Assembly: GCA_022710775.1 (NCBI GenBank)
Contig: JAKLGH010000001.1
Span: forward strand, 201,746-265,745
Direction: 5' to 3'
DNA: 64,000 bases
DNA from: Patescibacteria group bacterium
GTDB lineage: Bacteria > Patescibacteriota > Minisyncoccia > Minisyncoccales > UBA5738
Shown here: in pieces, positions 2,920 to 56,967 of the stretch
How the letters are laid out: every line of letters starts with the position of its first letter
Numbering within the stretch: position 1 is the stretch's first letter
Notes under the pieces: generated by a model
Told to the model about the DNA's origin: nothing
Seen by the model: only the letters and a program-made list of their open reading frames with translations
The model's database searches: none
Position numbers and translations under genes: made by a program

Positions 2920-2951
2920 ATCAAGCCTTCGTCTACAACGTCTTTTTTGGC

Positions 2952-4908: not shown

Positions 4909-4909
4909 T

Positions 4910-5389: not shown

Positions 5390-5457
5390 TTTGACCTCCT
5401 GTCTAAATTTGGCTGGAAGCATTTTTACATTGAGAAATGCTTTTGTCAACCTAAACT

Positions 5458-12324: not shown

Positions 12325-12406
12325 CGTTGCGCCTCCTGATTTTTACTTTTATATATATGATATTATTCTTATTTTGTCAAAAAAAGCGGCCGGTTTGCTT
12401 CTTTCC

Positions 12407-12508
12407 GCTGTCTTCGCTTTTCTAGCTTTTCTCGCTGTTTTAGCTGTTTTAGCTTTTTTCGCTGTTCTTGCTGTTTTAGTTTTTCTCGCTGTTTTAGCTT
12501 GCCTGCTG
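12407..12508. repeat. 11 tandem copies of a degenerate 9-bp unit GCTKTTYTM
   Basis: Read directly: gctgtcttc gcttttcta gcttttctc gctgtttta gctgtttta gcttttttc gctgttctt gctgtttta gtttttctc gctgtttta gcttgcctg. Spans the stop codon of 12494..13948. Confidence 0.8.
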
Positions 12509-26598: not shown

Positions 26599-26762
26599 TT
26601 TTTTGTTTTGATTATTTGCTGCGATAAACGACTCTTTTAAACGCTTTTATCCTTGTAAAATGATTATATACGATAAATGGCATTTTGCAAGCCCCTCTTT
26701 CAAAAAACCATTAAAAAAACACCGCTTGCGCGATGCTTTTTTTGCAAGTAGTTTTATAAAAA

Positions 26763-41467: not shown

Positions 41468-41788
41468 CTAAAACCGGGGCTTTACGACTTTCCTTTCTTC
41501 CGTTTTATCCGTTATCTGGACCAAATCGCAAATCTCGCATTGGCGGGTCCAGCGGGGGGTTTCTTTTCGGGAAACATAAACCGGCCCCTGCCAATCGACA
41601 CCATGGGTACCGGGTTTATCCCCCGGTAATGTGTGGGCTTCAACAACGATCGGATCATAACGAATCGGGCCCCATTTATGAAAGCAGCTTCTTTGAATCA
41701 CATTGAGCCGCTCTTTGGCTGATTCCAGGTTGCGGCTCAACTCTTCGATCTCTCGATTTAATTTTTGGACTTCTGTGCTCGCCATCAT
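41468..41788 (-). CDS. hypothetical protein
   Basis: AGGAGGTGG RBS before ATGATG at 41788/41785. Lies immediately downstream of the IS end. Confidence 0.55.
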   Translation of the reverse strand: MMASTEVQKLNREIEELSRNLESAKERLNVIQRSCFHKWGPIRYDPIVVEAHTLPGDKPGTHGVDWQGPVYVSRKETPRWTRQCEICDLVQITDKTEERKVVKPRF

Positions 41789-41831
41789 CCACCTCCTGAT
41801 TCTACTATTTATAAATAACATATTTTCTTAA

Positions 41832-42420
41832 TTTGTCAACAACCCCGGCCTGAAGGCCGGGGCTTGTTAGAGGTTCTCTTGGTTCCTTTGATTTTTGAGG
41901 TACTCTCGCATGGCTTTCTCATTGAGGCGCCCCACAGATTCAACAAAATAGCCATCCTGCCAGAAACTGTCGCCCCACAAAAATTCCTGCAATTCGGGAA
42001 ACTCCTTGCGCAGCACCTTCGAAGAGCCGCCCTTGAAAAAATTCACTGCTTTCGCTGGAGTTACGTTAGCCGGAAGTTTGATCAGCATGTGCAAGTGGTC
42101 AGGCATAGCTTCAACATCATGGACAAACCAACGATTCGTTTCCGCACACTGGAATAAGAGCTCCCGGATGCGCAACGCAAGCTTCCCCTGCAATACCCGG
42201 TTCCGATACTTTGGCGCGCAAACAATGTGATACGTAAGCCGATGGAAGGAGTGGGCGCCTTTCCAAAAAAATATCTTTTCGATTTTCATTCACTCATTTT
42301 ACCCTCAAAAATCAAAGGAACCAAGATAAAGGCACCCTCCATCCCGCTCTGTTCGGCGGGATTCCGGGGCGGGCCTTTTCCCCGGCCTGAAGGCCGGGGC
42401 TTGCGGCCCGGTTAAGTCAA
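41832..42420 (-). mobile_element. IS200/IS605-family element (tnpA only), 589 bp
   Basis: Limits come from identity with the 44917..45078 copy. Identical subterminal hairpins CCCCGGCCTGAAGGCCGGGG at 41843-41862 and 42381-42400. No terminal inverted repeats, as expected for this family. Confidence 0.75.
41867..42289 (-). CDS. tnpA: IS200/IS605 Y1 (HUH) transposase TnpA / RAYT-like
   Basis: 140 aa. HUH motif DHLHMLIK. C-terminal catalytic Tyr context REYLKNQ (YxxxQ). LTYHIVCAPKYR N-terminus typical of the family. Confidence 0.85.
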   Translation of the reverse strand: MKIEKIFFWKGAHSFHRLTYHIVCAPKYRNRVLQGKLALRIRELLFQCAETNRWFVHDVEAMPDHLHMLIKLPANVTPAKAVNFFKGGSSKVLRKEFPELQEFLWGDSFWQDGYFVESVGRLNEKAMREYLKNQRNQENL

Positions 42421-42539
42421 ATAAACGCCGAGGCAATGCCTTGGCTTTCATATGTTTTTTGTTTATCTGTCTATCATACCTTGTCAGCCTAGCAAAGATC
42501 CATTAAGGGATAAAGAAAAAAGGAAGGTTTTACCTTCCC

Positions 42540-43121
42540 TTAAGCCTCGTATACAACCACGGTCTCTGTGGCGTTAAATTGTTCTCTGCCGTTCAGATCC
42601 AGAATGTCAATATCAATGGTTTCCGGACCCAAAACCCTATACCATAACGTGAAATCGTGGCGCTTTTCTCCTTCCATTATATAACCAACCGCCTTGTCCG
42701 GAATCCCATCAAAATCGCTGGCTATCATAAGCGCCTCATCGCTTCCGTCGCTGAGCTCCTCCTTTCTGAAGGTAAAAGCTTCTCCATGGGAAGCAATTTC
42801 AATCATACCGTCTTTGCCCGGGACAATTCTTATGCACGTTGCTCCTTCGAATTGCGACCTCAAATATTCTGATAGATCGTCAATTCTTATCTTAACGCTA
42901 TCGGGTTCGCACCAACAATTCTCGATTGCGCCGGTGCTGGCGTTCTGCGTGGCCGCCCAAACCATGTTGTCCGGAGCCGGCGTGAAGGTTTCTCTTTCCA
43001 GAGAATTATTAAAGTCACAATCTTCCGTACATCCGAATGCTATAACGGCTTTAACTTCCATGCCTGTGCCGATTCCAAACAGGCAGGCCAGGAGCAGTAA
43101 GCTCCACAATAATTTGCTCAT
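42540..43121 (-). CDS. secreted hypothetical protein
   Basis: Signal MSKLLWSLLLLACLFGIGTG. Weak similarity to 1478..2032 (PGKDGMIEI/PGPDGMFNL, AVGYIMEGE/AIGYYISNEGE). Confidence 0.6.
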   Translation of the reverse strand: MSKLLWSLLLLACLFGIGTGMEVKAVIAFGCTEDCDFNNSLERETFTPAPDNMVWAATQNASTGAIENCWCEPDSVKIRIDDLSEYLRSQFEGATCIRIVPGKDGMIEIASHGEAFTFRKEELSDGSDEALMIASDFDGIPDKAVGYIMEGEKRHDFTLWYRVLGPETIDIDILDLNGREQFNATETVVVYEA

Positions 43122-43309
43122 CTCGTTTCACTCCTTTTTGGCTAATAGTTTGTTATATATTTAATTAATTATTTGTCAAGTATATTGAAGTACGTTATTT
43201 CAAAAAAGTTTAAAAAAGCAACCAGAGCCTTGGTTTGTAATTAAAAACGGCAAATTTATTGCCGCCTATTGTATAAAAAAACACTATCCGGTTTTTGATC
43301 CGCTAAATT

Positions 43310-43585
43310 TCAAAATACGCGCGGTTGGATAATGACATGCCAGCTGCCCAGATCGAACGGTTCGGTTGGTCTTTCTTTTACCCAATTCCTGTCAGGACCG
43401 ACCCACCGGGTTTTTTTGGTTTTTTCGCCGTTTCCGTCATACCCGAAGGATTCGCCGTTTAGGATTCCCTCGCATTTTGGACAGCGCAATTCCGCATTCA
43501 TCGCGTCGGCCGGAAGATCCTCTATCGACAATAACAATCCGCAATGTTCGCACAAGCCCAAGCAATCCAGCAAATATGTTCTCAA
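43310..43585 (-). CDS. zinc-ribbon small protein
   Basis: CEHCG ... CPKCEG cysteine pairs. Confidence 0.5.
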   Translation of the reverse strand: MRTYLLDCLGLCEHCGLLLSIEDLPADAMNAELRCPKCEGILNGESFGYDGNGEKTKKTRWVGPDRNWVKERPTEPFDLGSWHVIIQPRVF

Positions 43586-43679
43586 AACATCACCTCGATT
43601 TTCTTGACACCCAAAATTTATCGCCCTTTAACCAAAACAATACCGGCTAAATTCAACTACTTTGGCAAAAATGAAGTGT

Positions 43680-44153
43680 TTAGCCCACTATATAGCCGCA
43701 CCGCTTCCTGGCCAGGGTCCTTGTTATTTTTCGCCAGGCTTCGATTGCGCAAAACGGGTCCAGCGCGCCTTTCCATAAATTACTAACCGTGAGTTCTGTC
43801 CACTGATTTGCACCGCACATTTTCTCCGGCGGGTTCCCCGAACGCCGTGCTTTTAAAACCAAACAGCATTCTTTGGCGCCGTTAGCGGCTACATACGCGC
43901 CTACTTTCACCCTTGAACGGGCGGTAGCTTTCTTGGCGGTTTTAACCTCAAGGTTTTCGGGTTCGGGCGGAAATCCCAACGGTATCACATGGATCGCCCG
44001 CTGTTCAGTAAAATGGCCAAAATGTCCGGGCTGGCCAATTTCTTCTACCGTGAAAAGCGTAAAATACCGGGGATTTTTTGCCGTTGCTTTAGTCTCGCGC
44101 GCTTCAGACATTTCAATCACTTCAGCGCCAAGTTCCACATAAGCTCCTTTCAT
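43680..44153 (-). CDS. hypothetical protein
   Basis: ORF in track; RBS-like GGAGATGAGACGCA upstream. Confidence 0.5.
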   Translation of the reverse strand: MKGAYVELGAEVIEMSEARETKATAKNPRYFTLFTVEEIGQPGHFGHFTEQRAIHVIPLGFPPEPENLEVKTAKKATARSRVKVGAYVAANGAKECCLVLKARRSGNPPEKMCGANQWTELTVSNLWKGALDPFCAIEAWRKITRTLARKRCGYIVG

Positions 44154-44174
44154 TGCGTCTCATCTCCTGAATTA

Positions 44175-44855
44175 TTACGGTTGGGGGCTGGGCAGCGGCT
44201 TGTACGCCGAAGCAATACCGTCATCCACGTCCGCACCGGGGTGGACAAAACGAATGTTTATGACATCCATTTCATATTCTTCACCATGGCAGTTGATTCT
44301 GGTTTCGGGCGCGGTGTGAATGCCAATAGTATGGCTGTTGCTGGCCGTCCTGATAGACCGGTAGCCGAAATTTTCCCAATGTTCGCTGTACCGCCCAGCC
44401 ACAAACAGCAAGTTCACTATCTCCCGCGCGGCCGGCACATACCGGTATTGGGAAAACAGCTTCAGCTGGCTTTGTAAATCATGCCGCCAGTTGATCTTTT
44501 TTGAAGTAAATAGCGGTTTGGCGCGAATCAGGCGCCACGCCGGTATTGCCGTTTCGTGCAAATACGGCTCATCGCAGCTCCACGTAAAATTCCCATATTG
44601 GTTTGGCTGGAACAAATCAGGTTTCAATCCACGCATCATAATGATCGACAGCCCGAAATCCGGCACCAATATGTAGGTATTTCTGGTTCTTCTAAGCAGT
44701 TCCTCCGAAAAAGGTATGAATTCAAACCAACCCTTCTTTCTTTGGTCGGCAAATACTTGGCCGAGTTCCCGTTCGGCATGGTAGATATTGACGATATTAT
44801 CGTCCATTATCTGGTGCGCTTCGCTACGCGTTACCCAAAATTTTTTAGCTAACAT
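44175..44855 (-). CDS. hypothetical protein
   Basis: TTAGGAGGCAATAGA RBS before ATG 44855. Confidence 0.6.
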   Translation of the reverse strand: MLAKKFWVTRSEAHQIMDDNIVNIYHAERELGQVFADQRKKGWFEFIPFSEELLRRTRNTYILVPDFGLSIIMMRGLKPDLFQPNQYGNFTWSCDEPYLHETAIPAWRLIRAKPLFTSKKINWRHDLQSQLKLFSQYRYVPAAREIVNLLFVAGRYSEHWENFGYRSIRTASNSHTIGIHTAPETRINCHGEEYEMDVINIRFVHPGADVDDGIASAYKPLPSPQP

Positions 44856-44916
44856 TCTATTGCCTCCTAAGGCCGATTTTTAAACGTTCTGCGATGATAT
44901 TAAAACAACGGCAGAT

Positions 44917-45078
44917 TTTGTCAACAACCCCGGCCTGAAGGCCGGGGCTTGTTAGAGGTTCTCTTGGTTCCTTCGAAACCAAGCTAAAGGCGCCCTCCAT
45001 CCCGCTCTGTTCGGCGGGATTCCGGGGCGGGCCTTTTCCCCGGCCTGAAGGCCGGGGCTTGCGGCCCGGTTAAGTCAA
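44917..45078 (-). mobile_element. 162-bp non-autonomous derivative (MITE/PATE-like) of the IS200-type element
   Basis: Both ends match 41832..42420 nearly base for base, including both CCCCGGCCTGAAGGCCGGGG hairpins and the ATCCCGC..GCGGGAT hairpin. tnpA is replaced by the short hairpin CTTGGTTCCTTCGAAACCAAG. Confidence 0.8.
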
Positions 45079-45125
45079 TAAAACAAAAGCCTATCTCATA
45101 ATAGGCTTCATTAGATTTAACCGTT

Positions 45126-45467
45126 TCACATTAAATCTGTGACGGTTCCGTCTTTTGCTATAACTCCCTGCGTGGTCACCTTCAAAAGGTATGTTCCCAC
45201 CTTGATGATGCTGCCTTGAGGAGACCGCGACCAAAGATCCACGGCCGCGTAATGCAGCGAAACCGGCACGGGCGACAAATAAGTATAGGGGTTTGCCATC
45301 GTGCCATCCCCCTGCATTAAAATGCCATCGGCGTAATGTGGTCCATTGATATATTCCCAATCTTTCTTATTTGGTTCCAGCATCGCTTGTCCGATTTGCT
45401 CGCCAAAATCTCCGCCAACGGAGACATATATCGGCCCCGCCTTTCTTAATATATCTTTAAAAGACAT
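45126..45467 (-). CDS. hypothetical protein
   Basis: GGAGGATCAGG RBS. Promoter TTGACA-17-TATAAG at about 45490-45520. Confidence 0.55.
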   Translation of the reverse strand: MSFKDILRKAGPIYVSVGGDFGEQIGQAMLEPNKKDWEYINGPHYADGILMQGDGTMANPYTYLSPVPVSLHYAAVDLWSRSPQGSIIKVGTYLLKVTTQGVIAKDGTVTDLM

Positions 45468-45720
45468 CCTGATCCTCCATAGATAATAACCATCTTATAA
45501 TATATATTTATTATTTTGTCAATCATTGATCGGAATAATCGCAGTCGGTAGATAACCGCGCCGCAAGAAACCCGGCAAGGGCTTCTTTTTTGTTTTGAAA
45601 CCAAAAAACCAGCTTCCCAGAGTCCCGGTCTCTGTGGAATGGGGGGTCTTTGATACACGCGCGCAAAAAAACTCCATCAATATAGATGGAGAATAAATTA
45701 CGCCTTTCATTTGGCCTGCG

Positions 45721-46209
45721 TCAGCTTGTGTTATTAACTATGGCCATTGGCTGCATCACAAGCAATTTTCCAATGGTCATGCGGCCCTTTAGGTATTTCG
45801 CTTTCACCTCTTCATTTAGACCAAATTCTGGACTGAACAGGAAATCTTTTTCCGTTAAGCCGGTCCTTGCCAAAAACTGAAATGAATCTTTCGCGATGTC
45901 CTTTAATGTTGGTAGCAGTATATCTTTCAGTTTTGCCGTCATCATGCCTAGCAACGACCCAAGCTCCTTGTTGGGCATCGACTTTACAAGAGCCTCGATA
46001 ACTCCGTTGTCAAGAGTGTATTCGATAACTCTTACCTTGGCATCCGTAAAGCTGGATACGGTGAGAGGCTTATCGACCAAGTCCGATAAAATTTCCGGCA
46101 GTTTCTCCACTGTTGGCCTGATCACCTCAAGCATTGATCCGGGAAACTCATCCGCCCTTGGATCTTTCTCAAAGGCGCTCCATACAGCTTCTCTTGATAT
46201 TTCCGCCAT
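45721..46209 (-). CDS. hypothetical protein
   Basis: AAGGAGGCAGTGATAA RBS. Promoter TTGACA-16-TATCAT at about 46240-46270. Terminator CTCCATC..GATGGAG plus T7. Confidence 0.6.
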   Translation of the reverse strand: MAEISREAVWSAFEKDPRADEFPGSMLEVIRPTVEKLPEILSDLVDKPLTVSSFTDAKVRVIEYTLDNGVIEALVKSMPNKELGSLLGMMTAKLKDILLPTLKDIAKDSFQFLARTGLTEKDFLFSPEFGLNEEVKAKYLKGRMTIGKLLVMQPMAIVNNTS

Positions 46210-46267
46210 TTATCACTGCCTCCTTTTTTTGTTAACAAAAAAAATGATATCACATTACTCTATATTG

Positions 46268-46591
46268 TCAAATTAGAAAGCGGTCCGCTTTAAACCGCAA
46301 ATAGCGCGAAAAGACCCAGCCGGCAACATGGCAGAAATTTGTAGATCGCACCATAGAATTACAGAGTCCCGGTCTCTGGAACGCCGTTAATTTGGTTGTA
46401 GTCAGTTTATCTAATTTAGTATGTAAAACCCAATTACAATAAAATCTTAATGTTTTGTATCGATTAGATCCGTCTAAATCCAATATTTTTCGAATTCGAA
46501 CTAATAAATAAACCACTTCATTCCTTTGAGTAAGTTTCGATTTATTTTCTAAAAAAACTTTCAGATCGTTTATGAAATTGTTTTTATTCAT
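46268..46591 (-). pseudogene. 5' fragment of an AT-rich island gene fused to unrelated sequence
   Basis: The first ~70 codons are AT-rich and protein-like (MNKNNFINDLKVFLENKSKL...). The last ~35 codons lie in GC-richer DNA left of about 46380 and read as an arbitrary extension. Confidence 0.4.
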
Positions 46592-46599
46592 AAAGAAAT

Positions 46600-47706
46600 T
46601 TATTTCCCAGATTTAGTACGGTTATCTTGCCTGCATAACATTTGGCAATTCTCTGCGATTGTTTTTCCGCCTTCATGCCAAGGCGTTATGTGATCAGCTT
46701 CCATTTCTTCAATTTCCCATTTCTTTTTCTTATTTTCACCTTTGCAATGCGGACAAATTCCTTTTTGCCTCTCATACGCTTCCCGCTTCATCTTGTCGGT
46801 AAAAGCGCGGATATTCAAAAACTTTTCATTTCTAGTCAAGACATACTCATAAATGCCGGATTTTTTGGAAACATCTTCATCCTGCATCAATTCGGTTATT
46901 TCCTTTTCCAGTTTTTTTGAATCAAACTTTTTGTTTTTGAATTGGTTATACAATACGCCCCACGGTACATTACACATTTCCCTGCGATAATTTGGAAAAA
47001 CCTCTCGCACCCAAGAAATTACATCTTGAAAATAATCCCATAATTCATTAGCGTTTTTATTATGTTGGTGTTTAGCCATATAATCTTCAATTCTGCCATC
47101 ATTGATCCACGAAAGCGCAGTTTCTAAGTATTCTTGACGAACTGTATCCCCGCTAACTAATTGACCTCCGTCATTTGCAAGCAAATAAGCAACACAGTTT
47201 CTTTTACTAAATTTTAACTTGGCATCAGAAAGCCACTGACCAGTGTAAACAGCGTTGCGAATTTCTTGCGCATTTACTTTTTCCCCGTAAGTATTTATAA
47301 CCGTAAACCATTCAATTCGTTCCTTATCAGTTCCTTCGCAAAGATAAATCATCAGTTCGTAATCCAAAATTTTATCCTGTTCCTCTTTGGTCAAATTATG
47401 GAAAAAGCGGTTATTTAGAGAAAAATCGCCATTCACATATTGCCCAATGCTGATGGTGCGCTGTTGTCCGTCCAAAACTTCATAGCCACCATCTTCTCTA
47501 ATCATCCAATACATCACATTCAACGGAAAACCTTTTTTAACGGTTTCTATAACAGCATCACGTTGTTTTTCTTTGTACACAAATTCACGCTGATATTTTG
47601 GGCGAATATCAAGTTTTCCGCCATAAGCTACAACACCTTCTTCCGCGCTATCTTTGTAGCCATCAATAACTTTTCGGATTTTAATTTTTTGTAAATCTAT
47701 TTTCAT
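46600..47706 (-). CDS. DUF262 (ParB-like NTPase/nuclease) protein with C-terminal HNH endonuclease domain
   Basis: IRPKYQREFVY ... VLDGQQRTISI (DUF262 DGQQR motif). C-terminus CPHC...ADHITPWHEGGKT..NCQMLCRQDNRTK (HNH). Confidence 0.8.
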   Translation of the reverse strand: MKIDLQKIKIRKVIDGYKDSAEEGVVAYGGKLDIRPKYQREFVYKEKQRDAVIETVKKGFPLNVMYWMIREDGGYEVLDGQQRTISIGQYVNGDFSLNNRFFHNLTKEEQDKILDYELMIYLCEGTDKERIEWFTVINTYGEKVNAQEIRNAVYTGQWLSDAKLKFSKRNCVAYLLANDGGQLVSGDTVRQEYLETALSWINDGRIEDYMAKHQHNKNANELWDYFQDVISWVREVFPNYRREMCNVPWGVLYNQFKNKKFDSKKLEKEITELMQDEDVSKKSGIYEYVLTRNEKFLNIRAFTDKMKREAYERQKGICPHCKGENKKKKWEIEEMEADHITPWHEGGKTIAENCQMLCRQDNRTKSGK

Positions 47707-47707
47707 A

Positions 47708-48742
47708 TTATTTTTTCTTTCTTATTAATAAACGCCGAAACAATAATTTTCCATTAATAGTGAAGTCTTTGTCACCATTTTTACCTGTATATCTATCTAA
47801 CCCAATAATTTCAAACTGATCGGGGTTGTGTTTATCCAGAAAAGTTATTGGCACTCCCATCACCCCGTTGTAATCCCTCGGAATATCAATAAATCTGTTT
47901 ACATTGATGGCATTATAGTTATCATATTTTGAATATTCTTTTGTAGAGTACTTTTTATACAAAGTAAATTCAGTATGACGCTTGGAAACATAAAGATTTG
48001 TATACCAATTAACACTACCCATACTAAAATATTTCACACCATTTACAATTTTTTTTCTTGACTCTGTTGGAATGTCATAATCCATTGGGACTTGAAACCA
48101 TTTTGTGCCACCGTTATCGTACCCAAGCCAAACTTCATTGTCTTTTATTAAAGGAAAAAATTCTTTATAAATAATTGCTCCCTGTTGTCCCAAAATTAAA
48201 AATTTCTTTTTATACTCAATTAGCTGAGCTACATATTCTCGAAACAGAGAAAAGGGAGGGTTGGTTACGACGATGTCAGCTTGTTTAAGTAATTCTATAC
48301 ATTCATCACTTCTAAAATCACCATTACCTTTTAAAGGTGTGGCTGTGTTTTTATTATGTTTTAATAAATGCTCCACGTCATCAAGATTTATAGCGCCATC
48401 TTTGTCTGCATCCGGTACTTCTGTTATTTCTATTTTAAACGGCTCTTTTCCTGATGGCTTCAGCCCTTCTACTTCAAACAATGGCAACTGTCCGCCGACA
48501 ATCGGTGATTTTACATAACTTGTTGTGATGAGCCTTTTTAATTTAAGCGCATTAAAATTAGAAGCGAAGTATTTAAAAAAATTGCTCTCAAATGGATCGT
48601 CGCAATTACAATAAACCACCTTGTCCCGAAACTGTTCCTTATAATGTTTTAGTTCTTTTTCAATATCAACAAGCTGAGTATAAAACTCATCTTTTCCGGC
48701 ACCCTTCGCTCTGTGTAAATTTCTATTTAAAGATTTAGCCAT
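47708..48742 (-). CDS. EcoRI-family N6-adenine DNA methyltransferase
   Basis: KDEFYTQLVDIEKELKHYKEQFRDKVVYCNCDDP N-terminus typical of the family. Catalytic NPPF in IVVTNPPFSLF. Confidence 0.7.
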   Translation of the reverse strand: MAKSLNRNLHRAKGAGKDEFYTQLVDIEKELKHYKEQFRDKVVYCNCDDPFESNFFKYFASNFNALKLKRLITTSYVKSPIVGGQLPLFEVEGLKPSGKEPFKIEITEVPDADKDGAINLDDVEHLLKHNKNTATPLKGNGDFRSDECIELLKQADIVVTNPPFSLFREYVAQLIEYKKKFLILGQQGAIIYKEFFPLIKDNEVWLGYDNGGTKWFQVPMDYDIPTESRKKIVNGVKYFSMGSVNWYTNLYVSKRHTEFTLYKKYSTKEYSKYDNYNAINVNRFIDIPRDYNGVMGVPITFLDKHNPDQFEIIGLDRYTGKNGDKDFTINGKLLFRRLLIRKKK

Positions 48743-48746
48743 AAAA

Positions 48747-49079
48747 TTATCTTCCCTTTAAAATTTTATCTAAAATTGCTTGTATTCCATCGGCTAAATT
48801 TTTTGATATAACACAAAGATGGCCGAATATTCCTAATATAAAAATGAAAAATAAGACAATATCAATAGCATTCATACTATCACCATTTAGAAATGGCAAT
48901 CTGATAAATATAAAATAGTAACCAATCAATCCGGAAATAAAATAATTAAAAAAATCATTCCACATTTCAGAAAATTTTGATTGCCACTTTTTTCCAACAT
49001 ATTGATCGGAAATTGATTTATATTTTATTAAGCCAAGAATTAAGCTCGCTACGATTATAGTAATTAAAAAAATTGCCAT
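48747..49079 (-). CDS. small multi-pass membrane protein
   Basis: Three hydrophobic segments; 4-nt gap to the methylase gene. Confidence 0.55.
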   Translation of the reverse strand: MAIFLITIIVASLILGLIKYKSISDQYVGKKWQSKFSEMWNDFFNYFISGLIGYYFIFIRLPFLNGDSMNAIDIVLFFIFILGIFGHLCVISKNLADGIQAILDKILKGR

Positions 49080-49083
49080 ATTT

Positions 49084-49285
49084 TTATTTAAACAATTCCG
49101 CCACCGGCACGCCGAGGGCTTTAGCTATTTTTTCTAATGTATCCACAGTAGGATTCGGACTTTCTCCAGCTTCTATCTTTACAACGGTATTTAACGCCAA
49201 ATCAGCGTCTTTTGAGAGGCAATCTTGTGAAATTCCTTTTTTTGATTCGTAATTTGCTTATTTTTCGCCAACGAAATTTTTTCAC
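49084..49285 (-). pseudogene. XRE-family HTH regulator interrupted by a +1 A in an A7 run
   Basis: Frame 1 reads (GTG)KKFRWRKISKLRIKK. After the A7 tract (plus T7 at 49237-49243) the next frame reads GISQDCLSKDADLALNTVVKIEAGESPNPTVDTLEKIAKALGVPVAELFK. Together they form a canonical Cro/C1 HTH. Confidence 0.5.
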
Positions 49286-49340
49286 GTGGATGTTAATTTA
49301 CTTAATACAATGGTATCAAAAACAAATGAATTTTCCCAGC

Positions 49341-49363
49341 AAAAAAGCGGGTTTTACCCCGCT
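49341..49363 (-). terminator. orphaned terminator of the original tRNA-Asn locus
   Basis: Minus strand AGCGGG-GTAAAA-CCCGCT followed by TTTTTT, about 35 nt downstream of the displaced tRNA 3' fragment. Confidence 0.6.
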
Positions 49364-49395
49364 TCCTGCTGAAACTGGTTTGTATTCAACTTCTG

Positions 49396-49413
49396 GGCTC
49401 CGGTGGTAGGATT
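49396..49413. repeat. att-type direct repeat (copy of tRNA-Asn 3' end), distal junction
   Basis: GGCTCCGGTGGTAGGATT is identical to 63902-63919. Confidence 0.8.
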
Positions 49414-49457
49414 TGCTTCGGCTTCGCTCAGCATAAATGCTTCGGCTTCGCTCAGCA
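49414..49457. repeat. two 20-bp direct repeats TGCTTCGGCTTCGCTCAGCA (24-bp period)
   Basis: Copies at 49414-49433 and 49438-49457, starting immediately inside the att repeat. Confidence 0.8.
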
Positions 49458-49480
49458 CTAGCTCAATTCTTGCATTCTAC

Positions 49481-49762
49481 TCAACGAAGCGATTCGACAA
49501 TCTCGGGACAGGCGTTTATTCCAATGTTTCCATCGACCAGCATTTGCTTCTTTGCGTGATTCCAGCCTTTTATTTGTTTTTCCCTTTTCGCCGCCTCACT
49601 AACTGTTGAATATTTCTCACAATAAACGATCTCAACACAAAAGAACTTTCTTGTATAGAATGATTCTTTATTACGGTGTTCGTTTAATCTTTTTGCAAGG
49701 TCATTTGAAATCCCTACGTAAAAAGTTTTCTTGTCGCAAAGAAGTAAATATAAGTACCACAT
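49481..49762 (-). CDS. GIY-YIG nuclease family protein
   Basis: WYLYLLLCDKKTFYVGISNDLAKRLNEH ... REKQIKGW matches the GIY-(x10)-YVG, R and E pattern. Confidence 0.8.
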   Translation of the reverse strand: MWYLYLLLCDKKTFYVGISNDLAKRLNEHRNKESFYTRKFFCVEIVYCEKYSTVSEAAKREKQIKGWNHAKKQMLVDGNIGINACPEIVESLR

Positions 49763-49946
49763 ATTTCTAGGCTGCTCATGGAAGGGCTTGCCCTGAGCTT
49801 GCCGAAGGGCTCAGAGCCGTGCGTGAACTTAGAACCGTAATTATGAACGGCTGGCACTCCTACGAAATGGACGCGGCCGTCAAAATGCTCCGCCGGGAGT
49901 CGCCGTTCGATTGGATTGAATGATTCAGCAACACTGCAAAAGTGTC

Positions 49947-50459
49947 TTATTTCTGAAACAAATGTTTATTCTTAAAAATCAAATAGATCATACTTAATAT
50001 TAGAGCAATGCCAACCGGCGGAATGGCGTATAAAACCAAATTGGCAATGTTAAACAAAACAGAGATGCTAGTATTAAGAACTTTGAAAAGCCAGGGAACG
50101 AGAAAGGCATACGAAATCCACATTAAAAATATCCAGAGTATCGCCTTTATCGCATTATAGAGCTCCCACATGCCAAATGCCTTAACAACGATATCATGAA
50201 GCACTTTATAAAATTTGATCAGGTACAGAAAAAAACCAAGCGTGCAAAAAGTAAAAGCACTATAAAACACCCTGACGAAAATACTTGGCGCGGATAATGG
50301 GCTGATATTTTGCCATTGAAATTTAATACCAAAAGCAAAATGCCAGAGCAGAAGTACAAGAACTAAAATAATATAAGTTATTCCAGAACTTACTATCTCT
50401 TTTGTGTTTTTTATTATTACTTTTTTATACCAATCACTACTTTTCATTTTATTATTCAA
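49947..50459 (-). CDS. four-TM membrane protein, gene 4 of the unknown operon
   Basis: Four long hydrophobic segments; 4-nt overlap with the upstream gene. Confidence 0.6.
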   Translation of the reverse strand: MNNKMKSSDWYKKVIIKNTKEIVSSGITYIILVLVLLLWHFAFGIKFQWQNISPLSAPSIFVRVFYSAFTFCTLGFFLYLIKFYKVLHDIVVKAFGMWELYNAIKAILWIFLMWISYAFLVPWLFKVLNTSISVLFNIANLVLYAIPPVGIALILSMIYLIFKNKHLFQK

Positions 50460-51811
50460 TAACCCAGTTTAAATTTATCAAAAATTTCTAATTGTTTTAA
50501 AAAATCCTTATGCGAATCAGAACTATTACCCTCCTTAAGTTTTTTGCTTAGCACTGGCATTGTTTTAAGGTATCCGTCAAAACCTAACAAATTAAGGTAT
50601 TCATCCACAAAAATAATAAGTTTTTCAGCTGCCATCTTAACAAACCTATACGGCTCCAGAAAATACTCGTTATCTAATTTGTAATGCCCCCATTCGCCTA
50701 ATTTACTTCCGTTTTCTTTAGATAAGGCCACGATATGGTTAAAAAAATCTTGCGGAACTCTAATCATATTAAAATAGAAATTATCGTTTCTATTATCAAA
50801 ACGCAGCGCCTTAAGTCTTGCCCTGTGAATAATAAGGTCTCTAGGACTATACGTTAAATTGATCAAAGAGGAATTTTGGGAAAGGAAATCTTTAATTTTA
50901 CCGTTCTCTTGGTACAAGAGCTTCATGAAATCTTTTTGTCTATCCTTTCTTAATCCGATTCTTTCAAATTGATCAAATTTAATTTGATAGCGGTATTTGG
51001 ATATCCAAGCAAGTGAATCAAAAACCCCAGTGAATAGGGTGATTAGGTAATTAAAGTGGTAGATAGTAGCGTCCTGGGTATCATTATTAACACCGGAATA
51101 GTAATTTATACCTATCTCATCTATTGCTGTAAGCAGATCAATAATTCTGTCTCCAAGCGAAGCTGTAATATCCATTAAATCATCTCCCCGAGGAATATGC
51201 TTTTGCCCATAGACAATGATTGACCAAACTTTTTGGTAATTTTTAACTTTTGTCTTCAAAGAATAAAGATACCAAAGACCTCTATTAACGTAATAATTGG
51301 GAGCAATTAAAAATTTATTTTTATTTTTACAATATAAATCAATAAAAATTATCGCCTCTTCTGGGCTCAAGATACTTTGCGCTGGCAACTCCGGGAAGCC
51401 ATTCCTTGCCCAGTTTAGCCGGCTTAACAACTTTTTTCTCTCTGTAACTAAGATAACTTTTTTATCCTCTGACACCCCTAACAATGTCTTAAGAATAAAA
51501 GTTAAAATAAAGTCGTCATACTTGATATCAAGAGACTCGGCAATTATTTTTATGTCGGATATTTTATATCCGAACATGGTGCTTTCTTTGTAGCCATGTA
51601 ATTTGTCGCCTAATTTATCAATGACAATCCCGCTAATATCATTTTTGTCACTGAGAGACAATTGAACTACTGTATGCGTCTTTGAGCTGCCCAAAGAAAC
51701 AAACTCAAAAAGTTCATTATCAAAATAATTAAGCAGCCTCTTAGCGACATCAGATTTTAAAGAGTCTGAATCTAGTAAAATTCTTAGTGGCTTTTTGTAT
51801 TTATTATCCAT
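50456..51811 (-). CDS. hypothetical protein with HEPN-like Rx4H motif, gene 3 of the unknown operon
   Basis: 451 aa. C-terminal half has YSPRDLIIHRARL (R-x4-H). The N-terminus RILLDSDSL ... VILVTERKKL is faintly PIN-like. Both calls are tentative. Confidence 0.55.
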   Translation of the reverse strand: MDNKYKKPLRILLDSDSLKSDVAKRLLNYFDNELFEFVSLGSSKTHTVVQLSLSDKNDISGIVIDKLGDKLHGYKESTMFGYKISDIKIIAESLDIKYDDFILTFILKTLLGVSEDKKVILVTERKKLLSRLNWARNGFPELPAQSILSPEEAIIFIDLYCKNKNKFLIAPNYYVNRGLWYLYSLKTKVKNYQKVWSIIVYGQKHIPRGDDLMDITASLGDRIIDLLTAIDEIGINYYSGVNNDTQDATIYHFNYLITLFTGVFDSLAWISKYRYQIKFDQFERIGLRKDRQKDFMKLLYQENGKIKDFLSQNSSLINLTYSPRDLIIHRARLKALRFDNRNDNFYFNMIRVPQDFFNHIVALSKENGSKLGEWGHYKLDNEYFLEPYRFVKMAAEKLIIFVDEYLNLLGFDGYLKTMPVLSKKLKEGNSSDSHKDFLKQLEIFDKFKLGY

Positions 51812-51814
51812 ACC

Positions 51815-52918
51815 TTATGATTTTTTAATTATCTGCTCAACTATCTGGTCAAACGTCATAGTCCCATCACTGTAGTTCTTTAACGCTTCGTCTAACTCCG
51901 CATTGGAGAGGAAGCCATTGTAGACAAGCTTAGGAGCTAAAGCAAAACTGTTCTTTTTTGCGACTACAGCCAGCACCTGCTCATTAAATTCATGTACTAA
52001 ATAATCCCTAAAATCATTCAGATATTTTTTATAACGAATCACTGTATAAATATCATAATACTGAGTCATCTGGGGACCGTTCGTATCCATTAAATAATTA
52101 AAAATAGTTCTGACTTTTGCGCGCGCAATGTCATACTTACGCTTTTCACTTGCGTAAGTTGTATACCGCGCTCGTTCTAAGGGCAAATAATGACTCTCAA
52201 CCTCAACACCGCTTCGAGACTGATCAATACCAAACTGCCAAAACTTTTTAATAGGTCTTAAATATTTAAAACTCTGCGCGGTTGGTGATTTTTTGGCGAA
52301 AGGATATTGGCAATATATAACCTCGTCTTTTTCAAATTCAAACGAACGAGGCTTTTCTTTTTCTTCCCAATTTTTAAATCGTTTTTCTTTAAGATAAGTA
52401 AAAAGACTATATTTTTGGCTATAACCAATAATCTCACCTCGCTTACGTCTAACTTTCATCGTTTCATTTCGAAGATACTCAAAATCAACAGGAAAATGGT
52501 ACTTCTTATTTTTAATATCTATTTCGTCCCACTCAATCATGTAAAACTCGTCTCCCGTAATCAATAACTGCCAAGCAATATCCTCTAAGAAACCGCCCAC
52601 TGAATCCCCCTGGCCATATAAGTCATCCCTATAGAACGAATGCTCGTCAGTAAAATACCTCTCAAGGTCTTGCTTAAGGGCTGGGTCATCGCATTCAATA
52701 CCGAAATAATTTCTCTCATGCGTAACATAGCCAGGCCTATCAGGGACTGGCACATCCCTAAGTGGAAAAAGTGCATATCGAATTGCGTCAACTTCTATGC
52801 TTAACTCCATTCCATTTCTTGATGCCATTTCCAGTTGATCATATCCCTTAATGTACCCGAGTAATGGATCATCAAAAACATATCCTTTTTCTCTTTGTTT
52901 GTAAGGTCGTCGTCTCAT
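51815..52918 (-). CDS. hypothetical protein, gene 2 of the unknown operon
   Basis: 367 aa, soluble, no motif recognised; 3-nt gap to gene 3. Confidence 0.55.
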   Translation of the reverse strand: MRRRPYKQREKGYVFDDPLLGYIKGYDQLEMASRNGMELSIEVDAIRYALFPLRDVPVPDRPGYVTHERNYFGIECDDPALKQDLERYFTDEHSFYRDDLYGQGDSVGGFLEDIAWQLLITGDEFYMIEWDEIDIKNKKYHFPVDFEYLRNETMKVRRKRGEIIGYSQKYSLFTYLKEKRFKNWEEKEKPRSFEFEKDEVIYCQYPFAKKSPTAQSFKYLRPIKKFWQFGIDQSRSGVEVESHYLPLERARYTTYASEKRKYDIARAKVRTIFNYLMDTNGPQMTQYYDIYTVIRYKKYLNDFRDYLVHEFNEQVLAVVAKKNSFALAPKLVYNGFLSNAELDEALKNYSDGTMTFDQIVEQIIKKS

Positions 52919-55395
52919 ATTTTTTTACCTTGAATTTTTTTAAGGGTTTCGACAAACTGCCGGACGGCTTCTCTCTTCTTTGCCCACTCAACAAATGCTT
53001 CGGCACACTCCTCCTCTGGCTGATATGCTCGATAACTTAATTCGCGTATGAATCTGCTTGGATGATTAGCTACTTCTTGTAACCCCGAATAAAACCGAAC
53101 ATCGTCATAAGTCTTTGGCAATTGATCTATTTTCCACAAAATTTGGCCGAACCAATGATGGTAGCGAGTTGTCTCCCAATTTATAAGTTTGAGTGTAAGG
53201 TCAAGACCGCCGACGTCCTTCGGTTTTGACAGAACCTCCATGGCCTTAATGAATTGACCTGGCTGATATGCCGCCCCGATCGTCTGCACGTACTCAATAA
53301 GCAAATGGTAATTTTGCCGGAATTCGCACACCAGAAACACGAAACCCCCGAGAATAAGGCTGAGACGGTTGCGGTACATGATATTGTCGACATTCTTCTC
53401 ATCAGCATTGATGACCGGTAACATTAGCGTGAGTAGGCCAGCCAAAACCTTAAACAGTTTCTCACAATTCTCAATGACTGATGGGAAAAGCATCTTTTCT
53501 AGTTCTTCCCAAAATTCCGAATCGACCAGGATTTGCTTTGGAAGAAATGGCAGATATACTCCAGCTCCAGCGATCTTTGCACCATATTCGTCAGCCAATG
53601 CAACCTTGTCGATATAGAGCAACCGACTGATCCATTCGAAGCGAGCCTTAATAAATATCGCAAGTTCTTTGTGTTTTCCTTTCTGATAGAGGTCTTTGAG
53701 GATTATATTATGATGTGTAATCAACTTTTCTAAAAATTTATCGAGGTATTGCTTCTCCTTTGCCCGTGCATCGTCAAGCGTTTCTTTTTCAAGACGAATT
53801 TGCGGCGTTATGACGCGACCCTCACACTGAACTTCAAGATAGAGGCGATCCCAATAGTCAAGAACCTGGTTATAGAAAACTCCGGGTAGATCGAGCCTCG
53901 CCAACTCTTCGCGTGTGTGCGCAAGCTGTCCGTTTGCATCTACTAGTGATTTTATAATCTCCTGATACTTGGTATAGTCAAAACCATCGACGAGGGTTAG
54001 CCCAATCGCAAAATAAGCATTGAGATATGCGCCAAGCTCGTCTTCGGTCTGGACTTTCGCATAGAGCGCGAAAAAACCATCGAGATACTTTTCGAACGCA
54101 TCAGTCTCCTGATTTTCGTAAAGACCGGCAACTGTTTTTTGATAACGACCGTGCCCGTCCTTTTCGTAATCACCGGCGAGTGCGGTCTGGTAAAAATCAA
54201 TAACGTACTTGAGCAAATGAGTATCCTGCGGCGCTGTTCCAACGCGAGACTCCACAGCTTTAACAATATCAAAAACCCTGTCCTCAAACCAAAGATAATC
54301 CGGGCTACCGATGCGCAGAGGTCCTTTTCCCTGAAGTTCAAAATTGAGCTTCAGAGTTAGCGTCGACATACTATTCGCTTTAACCTCCACCTGCGTTTGT
54401 GGAAACCACCAACCGCGTTCTCTGTCGATATGTTTTTTTCGCTTGGCATACTCAGTGATCAAATTTGCAAGTACCATCGGCGTATAAATCACATCGTTCC
54501 AATTCTCCGCATGCCAGAGGTCTTCGAAAAGAGTCTTGAGTAGAGAAAGATGGTTCTGCGTTCTCATGCGTGAAGTTTGTATGATACTCCAACTCTTATA
54601 TGAATACCGGCTTCGGTCAGAGGCAAGTCGCATGCCTTCCTTCATGTCCGACTGTAACCTCTCAAAGAGATTCTTTGGCTTTATAGTGAAAATATAATGG
54701 TTCTTAAAAACGATAATCCCGAGTAAACAGATAGCTACCAAAATAACGACGGCAATAAAGCTAACCGACGACGGAAGTGTTAGAAGTTGAATACGTAGCA
54801 AGACTGCAATCGCAAAGATATCAGTGAATACAAGAAGTTTGAAAAAGAAATTACCGACGGTTTCCTGGTTAACGTAATCAGATACGGCAGATGAGTACTT
54901 ATCAGTAGTGAGCTGGAGGCCGACTGCATATAGAGCAAATAAAAGTCCCAGAATAGCGGAGATTGCGCCGATAGAAATCTCGAGCACAAGCTTTAAAAAC
55001 TCACTGTCCGGGAGAGTAAAAAAATCAAAGTGAGCTATAAATGCTTGGAACCAGCCAGTTTGAATGTGAGATAGTGACGTTGCGAGACCTTCAACACCCC
55101 AATCGGCAGAGATTACTACTACGAGTGATATTATTAGTACTACTATCGTACCCATAGAATTCCGGATAATTTGCATTGGTATCGTATATTCCGTTTTCCT
55201 ACGTTCCTGATTTCTGTACAGAATCCTTAATGATTCCCTTCGTCTCTGAAAAATGCTGTAAAAGAAACCGGTAAATGTGCCCAAGACGAGAATAAGCTTA
55301 TTTGGTTTTTTGTCTGCATCATAAGAAAAAGAAGAAACCTTTGGTTTCCATAAGATTCGTCGAAGAAAAAATTGTACTGCTCTTAAAAATTTCAT
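52915..55395 (-). CDS. large membrane protein (5 TM N-terminus plus ~590-aa helical domain), gene 1 of the unknown operon
   Basis: 826 aa. TM segments within residues 33-232. LQLTTDKYSSAVSDYV after TM3 is reminiscent of DUF2254-type proteins (weak). 4-nt overlap with gene 2. Confidence 0.6.
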   Translation of the reverse strand: MKFLRAVQFFLRRILWKPKVSSFSYDADKKPNKLILVLGTFTGFFYSIFQRRRESLRILYRNQERRKTEYTIPMQIIRNSMGTIVVLIISLVVVISADWGVEGLATSLSHIQTGWFQAFIAHFDFFTLPDSEFLKLVLEISIGAISAILGLLFALYAVGLQLTTDKYSSAVSDYVNQETVGNFFFKLLVFTDIFAIAVLLRIQLLTLPSSVSFIAVVILVAICLLGIIVFKNHYIFTIKPKNLFERLQSDMKEGMRLASDRSRYSYKSWSIIQTSRMRTQNHLSLLKTLFEDLWHAENWNDVIYTPMVLANLITEYAKRKKHIDRERGWWFPQTQVEVKANSMSTLTLKLNFELQGKGPLRIGSPDYLWFEDRVFDIVKAVESRVGTAPQDTHLLKYVIDFYQTALAGDYEKDGHGRYQKTVAGLYENQETDAFEKYLDGFFALYAKVQTEDELGAYLNAYFAIGLTLVDGFDYTKYQEIIKSLVDANGQLAHTREELARLDLPGVFYNQVLDYWDRLYLEVQCEGRVITPQIRLEKETLDDARAKEKQYLDKFLEKLITHHNIILKDLYQKGKHKELAIFIKARFEWISRLLYIDKVALADEYGAKIAGAGVYLPFLPKQILVDSEFWEELEKMLFPSVIENCEKLFKVLAGLLTLMLPVINADEKNVDNIMYRNRLSLILGGFVFLVCEFRQNYHLLIEYVQTIGAAYQPGQFIKAMEVLSKPKDVGGLDLTLKLINWETTRYHHWFGQILWKIDQLPKTYDDVRFYSGLQEVANHPSRFIRELSYRAYQPEEECAEAFVEWAKKREAVRQFVETLKKIQGKKI

Positions 55396-55503
55396 ATCCC
55401 TTCTTGCTTATTAAGTAATCCACAATCTACCTACTTCCATTTTCGTAAGATTTTCGGTATACTATAAATATATCACTTTGAGTTAAAAACATCAATCACG
55501 CTT

Positions 55504-56967
55504 ATGGCCATTCCGATAACAAAAAGACAAAAAGAAGTCCTAGATTTCATAAAGAAGTTTATAAAGAAGAAAAAATACCCTCCAACACTGGAGGAAATAT
55601 GTGTCGGGCTTAAACTCTCGGCCGTTTCCACTGTTCACCAGCATATAGAAGCGCTGGCCGAAAAAGGCTATTTAAAAAAAGTTGGAAATAACGCCAGAGC
55701 GATTGATATTAATGAACCAGAGGCAATGGTTAGGGTCCCACTCCTCGGAACAATCGCGGCCGGAGAACCTATAGAAGCGGTCCAACAAAAAGAATTTATT
55801 GCTGTGCCTAAAACAAAATTACCTGTAAACGGTGAAATTTATGCTCTTCGTGTTATTGGAAACAGCATGATAGACGAAAATATTAATGAGGGAGATGTCG
55901 TTCTGATAAAACATCAAAGCACTGCTGATAACGGCCAAAAGATTGTGGCTTTAATTGATAATCACGAAGCGACTTTAAAGAAATTCTATAAGAGCCGTGG
56001 ACTTGTTCGACTTGAGCCGGCAAATAAAAACTACAAACCAATTATCATCCAAAAAGATCAGGAGCTCTCAATACAGGGTATTGTTTTGGATGTTATAAAA
56101 AGCGGTGGGGAGATAAAAGAAAATCCAACACTATTTAATGACGAAATAGAAAAGGACGATAATTTACCAATAAACAAAATTATTTGCGGCGACGCATTGC
56201 ACCACTTGCAAAAACTGCCAGATCAATCAATCGACTTGATAATAGCTGACCCTCCCTACAACCTATCAAAAGGAAATCATATCCATTTTAATAACAACGG
56301 CTTAAAAGGCTTCGGCGGTGAGTGGAATAAGGTGATGGAAAATTGGGACAATCTTCCCTTGGTTGATTATTTCAAATTTACTGCTAAGTGGCTAAAAGAA
56401 GTTAAAAGAATCTTAAAACCTACAGGTTCAATATGGGTTTTTGGAACTTATCACAATACTGGAATTATTAATTTGATATTCCAGACGCTTGGGATTGAAA
56501 TAATTAACGAAGTGGTTTGGTACAAGCGCAATGCCTTCCCAAATCTTGCCGGCCGGCGTTTTACTGCGAGCCATGAAACCCTGCTATGGGGACACGCCGG
56601 GGAGAAAAGAAAATATTATTTCGACTATAAGCAATCGAAAGAATTCCATGATCCGTCCGACCTATTAAAATCTCAGGGCAAGCAGATGAGAACGGTTTGG
56701 GATATCCCGAACAATAAAGAATCGAGGGAGATAGAATTCGGCAAACATCCAACCCAAAAACCTCTGAGCGTTTGTAAAAGAATTATTTCCTTATGTTCAA
56801 AGCCAGATGATATTGTCTTGTCTCCTTTTGCTGGAGCTGGGAGCGAATGTTTAGCCGCAAAAGAATTGGGGAGAAAATATATTGGCATAGAGCTCGATGA
56901 AAAATACGTGGATATTGCAAACAAAAGACTGAAATACTCCAAAAATCAACAACCTTTATTTAACTAG
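55504..56967 (+). CDS. LexA-like repressor (wHTH + S24 peptidase) fused to a beta-class N4/N6 DNA methyltransferase
   Basis: Residues 1-205 form a complete LexA: PPTLEEI...STVHQHIEAL, cleavage site IAAGEPI, Ser in GNSM, Lys in ATLKKF. Residues 215-487 carry IIADPPYN (motif IV), then SPFAGAGSE (motif I). Confidence 0.8.
   Translation: MAIPITKRQKEVLDFIKKFIKKKKYPPTLEEICVGLKLSAVSTVHQHIEALAEKGYLKKVGNNARAIDINEPEAMVRVPLLGTIAAGEPIEAVQQKEFIAVPKTKLPVNGEIYALRVIGNSMIDENINEGDVVLIKHQSTADNGQKIVALIDNHEATLKKFYKSRGLVRLEPANKNYKPIIIQKDQELSIQGIVLDVIKSGGEIKENPTLFNDEIEKDDNLPINKIICGDALHHLQKLPDQSIDLIIADPPYNLSKGNHIHFNNNGLKGFGGEWNKVMENWDNLPLVDYFKFTAKWLKEVKRILKPTGSIWVFGTYHNTGIINLIFQTLGIEIINEVVWYKRNAFPNLAGRRFTASHETLLWGHAGEKRKYYFDYKQSKEFHDPSDLLKSQGKQMRTVWDIPNNKESREIEFGKHPTQKPLSVCKRIISLCSKPDDIVLSPFAGAGSECLAAKELGRKYIGIELDEKYVDIANKRLKYSKNQQPLFN

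Follow-up and report, generated by a model that had tools for sequence, protein, structure and literature searches.

Genomic context of the element pair

We analysed a window of 64,000 nucleotides from a Patescibacteria group bacterium (assembly GCA_022710775.1, contig JAKLGH010000001.1, positions 201,746 to 265,745), in which two related elements lie 2.5 kb apart in the same orientation: a full copy of 581 bp that carries a transposase gene (tnpA) and belongs to the IS200 group of insertion sequences (IS), and a gene-less copy of 154 bp. The functional 'top' strand of the elements is the minus strand, which is also the tnpA-sense strand, with tnpA reading from the left end (LE) towards the right end (RE). 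The parts of the pair are given below by window position; C_L and C_R denote the presumed left and right cleavage sites, IP_L and IP_R the hairpins at the two ends.

41835..42415, minus strand: full IS200-group element, 581 bp, with the LE at 42415 and the RE at 41835
42416..42420, minus strand: TTGAC directly 5' of the LE and outside the element, presumed target and left cleavage site C_L
42400..42403, minus strand: CAAG 5' of the IP_L foot, putative guide
42380..42399, minus strand: IP_L, the left subterminal hairpin CCCCGGCC-TTCA-GGCCGGGG
42341..42362, minus strand: second LE hairpin, ATCCCGC / GCGGGAT, between the conserved CCCGGA and GGAGG motifs
42303..42329, minus strand: 5' arm of a long-range inverted repeat, just upstream of tnpA
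42296..42301, minus strand: putative -10-like hexamer TAAAAT, located 6 nt before the ATG of tnpA
41867..42289, minus strand: tnpA, encoding a 140-aa Y1/HUH transposase; the only open reading frame (ORF) within the 581-bp element
41874..41900, minus strand: 3' arm of the long-range inverted repeat, overlapping the last tnpA codons (...LKNQRNQEN)
41835..41866, minus strand: RE, comprising CAAG (41863-41866), the IP_R hairpin (41843-41862), TTG and the terminal TTGAC (41835-41839)
44920..45073, minus strand: short tnpA-less derivative (miniature inverted-repeat transposable element, MITE, or palindrome-associated transposable element, PATE), 154 bp without an ORF, made up of LE nt 1-97, a residual stem and the RE
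45074..45078, minus strand: TTGAC target site 5' of the LE of the short copy
45038..45061, minus strand: IP_L hairpin and CAAG of the short copy
44963..44983, minus strand: residual hairpin CTTGGTT-TCGAAGG-AACCAAG, remnant of a deletion between the repeat arms
44928..44951, minus strand: IP_R hairpin and CAAG of the short copy

Five insertion loci were compiled from public contigs, three for the full form (A, in the window and on L057; B, on L058, L059 and L054; C, on L060) and two for the short form (D, in the window; E, on L056). Copy-number counts are lower bounds (the metagenome scan missed contigs known to carry the element). The full form thus occupies at least three loci at ~99% identity, copies A and B differing at 5 of the 581 positions. 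An exact look-up of the window TnpA returned no record, and the representative of its cluster (P0001, 98% identical) was used instead; it is annotated by NCBI in Candidatus Paceibacterota metagenome-assembled genomes (MAGs), and one MAG/assembly holds three identical TnpA accessions.

Transposase gene

The tnpA product is an IS200-type Y1/HUH transposase. It matches Pfam Y1_Tnp with E = 8.7e-36 (123 bits, cutoff 23) and passes the NCBIfam equivalog model transpos_IS200 (121.7 bits, cutoff 55). Its HUH motif (within PDHLHML) and catalytic tyrosine (within WQDGYF) align with those of solved relatives, the nearest of which are the S. tokodaii IS200 transposase (2EC2, 2.7e-22), ISDra2 (2XM3) and IS608 (2VJU); the tyrosine matches that of the ISDra2 and S. 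tokodaii TnpA. No tnpB accompanies tnpA, the sole gene of the element. An earlier sequence-only reading of this DNA had described a 140-aa HUH/Y1 transposase between identical hairpins, and both the profile match and the hairpins (found at four sites, see below) bear this out. A scan of viral contigs for TnpA relatives found none.

With IS200 of Salmonella and its group the element shares a single small Y1/HUH tnpA, the absence of tnpB and of terminal inverted repeats, structured ends and a very small size. IS200 is ~700 bp long, whereas the element described here measures 581 bp, has TTGAC at both cleavage sites and possesses a conserved stem that reaches from the tnpA upstream region to its last codons; we know of no long-range stem bracketing tnpA in IS200.

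A different origin would be a domesticated REP-associated tyrosine transposase (RAYT) with its REP/REPIN repeats (repetitive extragenic palindromes), instead of a selfish IS with a MITE. Both kinds of system combine a small protein of the Y1 transposase fold with flanking GC-rich palindromes, short palindrome-bearing repeats are present here too, and TnpA has a weak match to the NCBIfam model REP_Tyr_transpos. This match (34.1 bits), however, fails the cutoff of 80 by a wide margin, while transpos_IS200 reaches 121.7 bits against 55, and the PDB matches include no RAYT structure. Moreover, the gene exists in at least three near-identical copies (RAYTs are typically single-copy), its flanking hairpins are direct, not inverted, and have the asymmetric spacing typical of IS608, and two short copies are known rather than tens to hundreds. 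RAYT/REPIN membership was rejected on the score, the gene copies and the direct hairpins, and we consider a RAYT origin extremely improbable. Where the sequence-only reading spoke of an autonomous/non-autonomous 'PATE/REPIN-like' pair, the PATE (or MITE) part is thus retained and the REPIN part is dropped.

Boundaries and ends of the elements

The 20-nt palindrome CCCCGGCCTGAAGGCCGGGG occurs at exactly four plus-strand sites in the window (41843, 42380, 44928 and 45038), against a chance expectation of ~0.02. The hairpins at the two ends are identical, stand in direct orientation on one strand, and are not accompanied by terminal inverted repeats. On the tnpA-sense strand the left end reads TTGAC followed directly by TTAACCGGGCC... 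at all five loci, and the right end, where intact (all but copy C), closes with ...GGGGTTGTTGAC. These ends, shared by five independent insertions, place the boundaries at 41835-42415 and 44920-45073; the sequence-only reading had recognised both elements and had included shared flank bases in its coordinates (41832-42420 and 44917-45078).

TTGAC stands 5' of the LE at 5/5 loci, as well as in the related families L061, L065, L069, L071, L072, L082 and L095 (see below). In the full copy (minus strand) it is located 16 nt 5' of the IP_L foot, while the terminal TTGAC of the RE, presumably C_R, belongs to the element and ends 8 nt 3' of the IP_R foot. At both ends the CAA of CAAG is complementary to the TTG of TTGAC, and when the right end is folded as single-stranded DNA (ssDNA), AACAA is paired with TTGTT. 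Beyond CAA:TTG, no rules of pairing between guide and cleavage site could be derived for the families L062 and L088.

In IS608, C_L (TTAC) lies 19 nt 5' of IP_L and C_R (TCAA) 10 nt 3' of IP_R, and each hairpin foot has a 4-nt guide on its 5' side (PMC3201880; PMC5934647). The element has the same layout as this Helicobacter pylori IS, with subterminal hairpins on one strand, C_L outside (16 versus 19 nt), C_R inside (8 versus 10 nt) and a tetranucleotide at each foot. Unlike it, IS608 has a tnpB and a length of ~1.8 kb, and combines the sites TTAC/TCAA with the guides AAAG/GAAT, where the present element has TTGAC twice and CAAG twice. ISDra2 of Deinococcus radiodurans inserts 3' of the pentanucleotide target TTGAT (PMC2806898). 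This target is one base apart from TTGAC, and the ISDra2 TnpA (2XM3) is among the best structural relatives, although ISDra2 carries tnpB. To our knowledge, neither an association with -35 boxes nor a repeat bracketing tnpA has been reported for ISDra2.

The GC skew of the plus strand ranges from -0.04 to -0.14 up to ~56 kb and is -0.02 in the last bin of the window. Negative values across the window would put the top strand of the element on what is presumably the lagging-strand template, in line with expectation for the IS200/IS605 family; gene-orientation bias confounds this strand reading.

Both left ends (window 42358-42429 and 45016-45109, minus strand) gave sub-threshold matches to the archaeal HgcC RNA (Rfam RF00062), of 22 and 29.7 bits against a gathering score of 50, and membership was rejected. 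An independent known RNA at 41-46 kb was likewise rejected, as Rfam returned only sub-threshold matches there (HgcC at 29.7 bits versus 50, isrK and anti-hemB). The HgcC matches probably reflect shared GC-rich hairpin content only.

Origin and dispersal of the short copy

Within the window, 41832-41891 aligns with 44917-44976 (98% over 60 nt) and 42319-42426 with 44977-45084 (96% over 108 nt), which agrees with the earlier observation that a segment near 45 kb repeats both ends of the full copy. The short copy is assembled from LE nt 1-97, which differ from the full copy by two substitutions, the final 14 nt of the 3' repeat arm, which differ by one, and the RE, which is identical over its last 50 nt. 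About 427 bp are absent from it, and both deletion breakpoints fall inside the repeat arms. The inverted repeat that brackets tnpA, taken to be 23 bp in the sequence-only reading, proved to have arms of 27 nt that are 96% complementary; its collapse into a hairpin through a deletion between the repeats, as proposed there, matches the breakpoints and the CTTGGTT..AACCAAG remnant at 44963-44983, which has seven Watson-Crick pairs and one or two inner pairs. A plausible route to such a product is slippage across the base of a long hairpin. The short copy folds as ssDNA with -45.9 kcal/mol (z = -4.9) and keeps both hairpins, both CAAG and both TTGAC motifs, with its cognate full copy 2.5 kb away on the same contig.

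PATEs and MITEs of the IS200/IS605 family are short, preserve the palindromic ends only and are mobilised in trans (family definitions in PMC7290912). The short copy fits this description in keeping the palindromic ends without the transposase; it departs from it in its low copy number (two loci so far) and in the residual stem left by the repeat, and a 44-nt form with one hairpin is found in another candidate phyla radiation (CPR) genome (L011, see below).

Given that the full copy is only 2.5 kb away in the same orientation, and that no empty site was found, the short copy could be taken for an immobile local segmental duplication or a remnant of gene conversion. Against this stands short copy E: it is identical to D at 154/154 positions, has the same junction, lies on another contig (L056) among unrelated genes and is bounded in the same way (TTGAC/...TTGAC/, slashes marking the element boundaries). 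The alignment of L056 with the window locus stops at the element ends, and the two window copies are separated by unique sequence. We therefore give a local origin hardly any credence, and the unique local duplication that the sequence-only reading had named as the outcome that would speak against it is not what was found. As D and E share the deletion junction exactly, one deletion must have been followed by at least one transposition.

Taken as a whole, the data are best explained by an IS200-group IS (tnpA only, 581 bp) and a 154-bp non-autonomous MITE/PATE, which can be mobilised in trans by the TnpA of the IS, and we regard this explanation as very likely to be correct. By itself such a pair is routine and ordinary in kind, the details being moderately interesting.

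Several observations weigh against mobility as just described. Empty sites were sought through the 226-aa neighbour protein and none was found, 16/16 contigs carrying both insertions; excision and insertion are thus inferred and were not seen. The short form is known from two loci only, so that the dispersed family suggested by the sequence-only reading holds in the sense of more than one locus and not in that of many. Formally, a target TTGAC together with an identical right cleavage site is indistinguishable from a strict 5-bp target duplication. Copy C (L060 9875-10455; ENA ERZ795054 NODE_563) has an inverted loop in its left hairpin (TGAA versus TTCA on the tnpA-sense strand), and its right end stops at GGGGTTG/CGTTTTC, without the terminal TTGAC and 47 nt from the contig end; a loop inversion, a truncation or an assembly artefact could account for these oddities. 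The recent transposition claimed earlier receives indirect support from the identical and near-identical copies and none from empty sites. The divergent strain L100 carries a diverged IS at the same site as insertion A, which indicates that this insertion is not very recent.

Among metagenome contigs L072-L081 and L095-L098, one and the same left flank is found joined to different right flanks and vice versa, and many contigs end inside the element. Assembly breaks or chimeras at multi-copy repeats typically look like this, and hence single contig joins across elements are untrustworthy. On L083/L085 and L073, the LE of one element directly follows an RE-like hairpin and TTGAC of another; since each right end closes with the target sequence, it allows a further element to insert behind it in tandem.

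Related elements and the repeat around tnpA

We compared elements that encode TnpA relatives at 53-72% identity. TTGAC and CAAG ends are kept in seven families (L061, L065, L069, L071, L072, L082 and L095), of which L061 and L071 are represented by one copy each, their boundaries being read by analogy with the other families. The common plan starts with TTGAC, then 12-14 nt, CAAG, an 8-bp GC hairpin, ATAC or AAAA, a lower helix, CCCGGA, the second hairpin and GGAGG; it continues with the 5' repeat arm, a -10-like hexamer, tnpA with the 3' arm in its last codons, CAAG, the hairpin, 3 nt and TTGAC. The L088 family has different termini and, in keeping with the guide logic, different tetranucleotides 5' of its hairpins. 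In a consensus fold of eight related left ends the stem of the second hairpin is kept while its sequence varies, with compensatory changes at most pairs.

Of the repeat around tnpA, the structure is conserved and the sequence is not. Its best stem has 13-26 pairs in 8/10 families, where shuffled controls reach at most 10-12 pairs. In the covariation alignment 93.8% of the cells are paired and 15/16 pairs show compensatory double changes, compared with 35-52% paired cells when the partner is slid by 1-3 columns. This alignment was registered manually, starting at the stem base, a choice that is biased towards the structure and tempers these figures; the per-family stem test does not depend on it. 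The minimum-energy fold of the full element as ssDNA also contains the stem, whose arms lie at distances from the LE and RE hairpins that are conserved among families. Thus, the inverted repeat, the second LE hairpin and CAAG are all conserved in TnpA relatives down to 53% identity.

We tentatively suggest, at somewhat less than even likelihood, that the stem acts in the single-stranded DNA substrate, where it would join LE and RE. It could instead act at the RNA level, the 5' region of read-through transcripts pairing with the 3' end of the ORF and so limiting TnpA synthesis or altering mRNA stability. IS200 controls tnpA through RNA stem-loops, the 5' arm of the window copy includes GAGG, and on the sense strand G:T mismatches slightly exceed A:C ones (5 versus 2, uninformative as to the strand). 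On the other hand, most families have a -10-like hexamer between the 5' arm and the ATG, so that an mRNA started there would lack the 5' arm; nearly all pairs (130/144) are Watson-Crick; the mobile tnpA-less copy retains the stem base; and the arm-to-hairpin distances are conserved. Because of the position of the hexamer, the retained stem base and the conserved distances, we favour the role in ssDNA and look on the RNA role as doubtful.

A (T/C)AnnnT hexamer is found 6-8 nt 5' of the tnpA ATG in 10/10 families and is preceded by TGn in 7/10. The consensus promoter scan made no call at the window hexamer (TAAAAT, 42296-42301), which may nonetheless be a tnpA promoter that yields a leaderless mRNA. 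A three-codon upstream ORF (window 42287-42306, minus strand), preceded by GAGGG, has a stop that overlaps the tnpA start codon (ATGAGTGAATGA), and the same overlap recurs in L061 113-132 (ATGACAGAATGA). It may serve translational coupling or, alternatively, the mRNA may be leaderless and start from the TAAAAT/TACAAT hexamer.

The hairpin motif, with element boundaries undefined, also occurs in Planctomycetota, a Methanofollis MAG and others. A tblastn search with TnpA against 53 hairpin-bearing genome loci gave one weak match (L035); most of these loci are tnpA-less repeats or chance hairpins in high-GC genomes, and they belong to the same family only where the ends match.

In Candidatus Staskawiczbacteria (L011 7556-7614, JAHFKU010000002.1) we found a mini-element of 44 nt that has a single hairpin (TTGAC/TTCCCTTGGCCG-CAAG-hairpin-ATG-TTGAC/), LE-type on its 5' side and RE-type on its 3' side, with a terminator and a perfect TTGACA-16-TATAAT as its neighbours. 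It seems to have arisen when a full or short element recombined at its two identical 24-nt hairpin repeats. Candidatus Aminicenantes (within L001-L053; OY969696.1 and JALHUR01) harbours a MITE family of ~110 nt at no fewer than 21 loci, with two hairpins (three in some copies), of which the right one is identical; both guide positions hold CAAG, and TTGAC stands at either end. In an uncultured Planctomycetota (L044 5466-6095) the same 24-nt hairpin with CTTG stands twice, in direct orientation, around a 163-aa, highly divergent Y1-like ORF with an HUH-like THVHV motif (NCBIfam transpos_IS200 29.8 bits, below the cutoff of 55) and no evident TTGAC termini. A distant transposase thus appears to use the same hairpin.

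Promoter context of the insertions

The sigma-70 -35 hexamer has TTGAC as its core, and genes in the window are repeatedly preceded by canonical TTGACA-17-TATAAT motifs. The features that flank the two elements are as follows.

41787..41839, minus strand: junction of the full copy with the next gene, TTGACA (TTGAC of the RE and a flanking A), a weak -10 (TGTTATTTA), GGAGG and ATGATG
44897..44924, minus strand: promoter-like TTGACA-16-TAATAT, called by an independent scan with 10/12 matches, its TTGAC being the RE terminus of the short copy
44175..44855, minus strand: gene for the 226-aa protein, downstream of the TTGACA-16-TAATAT site
45086..45109, minus strand: terminator-like hairpin with a T-run, belonging to the upstream gene and stopping just short of the target TTGAC

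The right flank is readable at 4/5 loci. In all four the terminal TTGAC of the RE is followed by A, giving TTGACA, and the next gene lies 40-70 nt downstream in the same orientation; TAnnnT stands at 16-17 nt in three of them. On the LE side of insertions A, D and E, the upstream gene closes with a terminator hairpin and T-run, after which the target TTGAC follows. Across families, TAnnnT is found 16-18 nt after TTGACn in 9/13 unique RE flanks (12/19 with manual additions), whereas among all TTGAC sites of the window 16/148 are promoter-like (Fisher p = 6e-6 against 9/13). The right flanks of the Aminicenantes MITEs have a -10-like hexamer at 16-18 nt in 6/21 cases versus 26/360 (p = 0.005). 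Since C_L and C_R are both TTGAC, an insertion into a -35 box would rebuild the box, and such insertions would be tolerated and persist.

The association may also be passive. TnpA, the specificity of which we read as being for TTGAC, would simply require this pentanucleotide, insertions within genes would be purged, and most intergenic TTGAC sites would be -35 boxes, with neither adaptation nor active targeting. Accordingly, when only intergenic TTGAC sites of the window are considered (9/27 promoter-like), the enrichment of 9/13 or 12/19 is marginal (p = 0.05-0.07), about a third of the flanks are not promoter-like, and most of the enrichment may come from selection against genic insertions. 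The promoters of this organism are, moreover, predicted ones, and at the junction of the full copy, where the -10 is poor, the promoter scan with its strict rule made no call. Against a passive association, C_L = C_R = TTGAC is kept in seven families and in the Aminicenantes MITEs, while the sites of IS608 differ from each other (PMC3201880). Identical sites are exactly what makes -35 insertions neutral, which is suggestive of selection on the element without being proof. We put the passive explanation at close to an even chance, slightly on the lower side.

Proposed mechanism and implications

By analogy with IS608 and ISDra2, a TnpA dimer would bind the two hairpins on the single-stranded lagging-strand template, and the CAA of the CAAG guide would pair with the TTG of TTGAC and so position cleavage. 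The element would then exit as a single-stranded circle and re-insert 3' of another TTGAC, as the peel-and-paste transposition of its homologues suggests. On insertion into a -35 box, the terminal TTGAC of the element would replace the old one and the downstream gene would keep TTGACA-16/17-TAnnnT; insertions of this kind, being nearly harmless, would be the ones that survive. The short form would have a single origin in the ~427-bp deletion with endpoints in both repeat arms, followed by one or more transpositions. The repeat itself would most likely be a stem that joins LE and RE in the single-stranded substrate, and the short copy the folded skeleton without the tnpA loop.

A more ambitious joint reading would see a widespread clade of IS200-type elements and miniatures, in CPR bacteria and Aminicenantes, adapted to -35 hexamers: C_L and C_R would have converged on TTGAC, insertion would be transcriptionally neutral, and the covarying stem would act in cis on ssDNA and be the breakpoint from which MITEs arise. 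We advance it as speculation that, in its entirety, is rather unlikely to hold. A search of the literature for an IS200/IS605 element with a TTGAC target, of partial coverage and with ISfinder outside it, returned nothing relevant; within the same bounds, identical TTGAC sites on a -35 core, the covarying stem and the elaborate left-end fold had no match.

An apparently active single-strand transposon with a miniature derivative is hereby described in an uncultured CPR bacterium, a group with small, streamlined genomes. The identity of C_L, C_R and the -35 core would let the element occupy promoters undamaged, which could explain its persistence in gene-dense genomes, and '-35 boxes' annotated beside these hairpins would belong to the element. 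The covarying stem and the multi-hairpin left end are candidate cis-acting DNA structures in peel-and-paste transposition; IS608 is under engineering as a DNA-guided integration tool (PMC5934647).

Other features of the window

GC content falls to 0.38 in the window at ~44000-56000 and on L057 at 2500-5700. Among the neighbouring genes are those for an EcoRI-like methylase, a GmrSD/HNH protein and GIY-YIG proteins, and a defence or mobile island may thus adjoin the short copy. At 26754-26894 and 12389-12496 there are tandem repeats with units of 12 nt and 9 nt (GCCGCCTTTTTG-like and GCTGTTTTA-like), whose translation from the minus strand would give low-complexity stretches rich in Lys/Ala.

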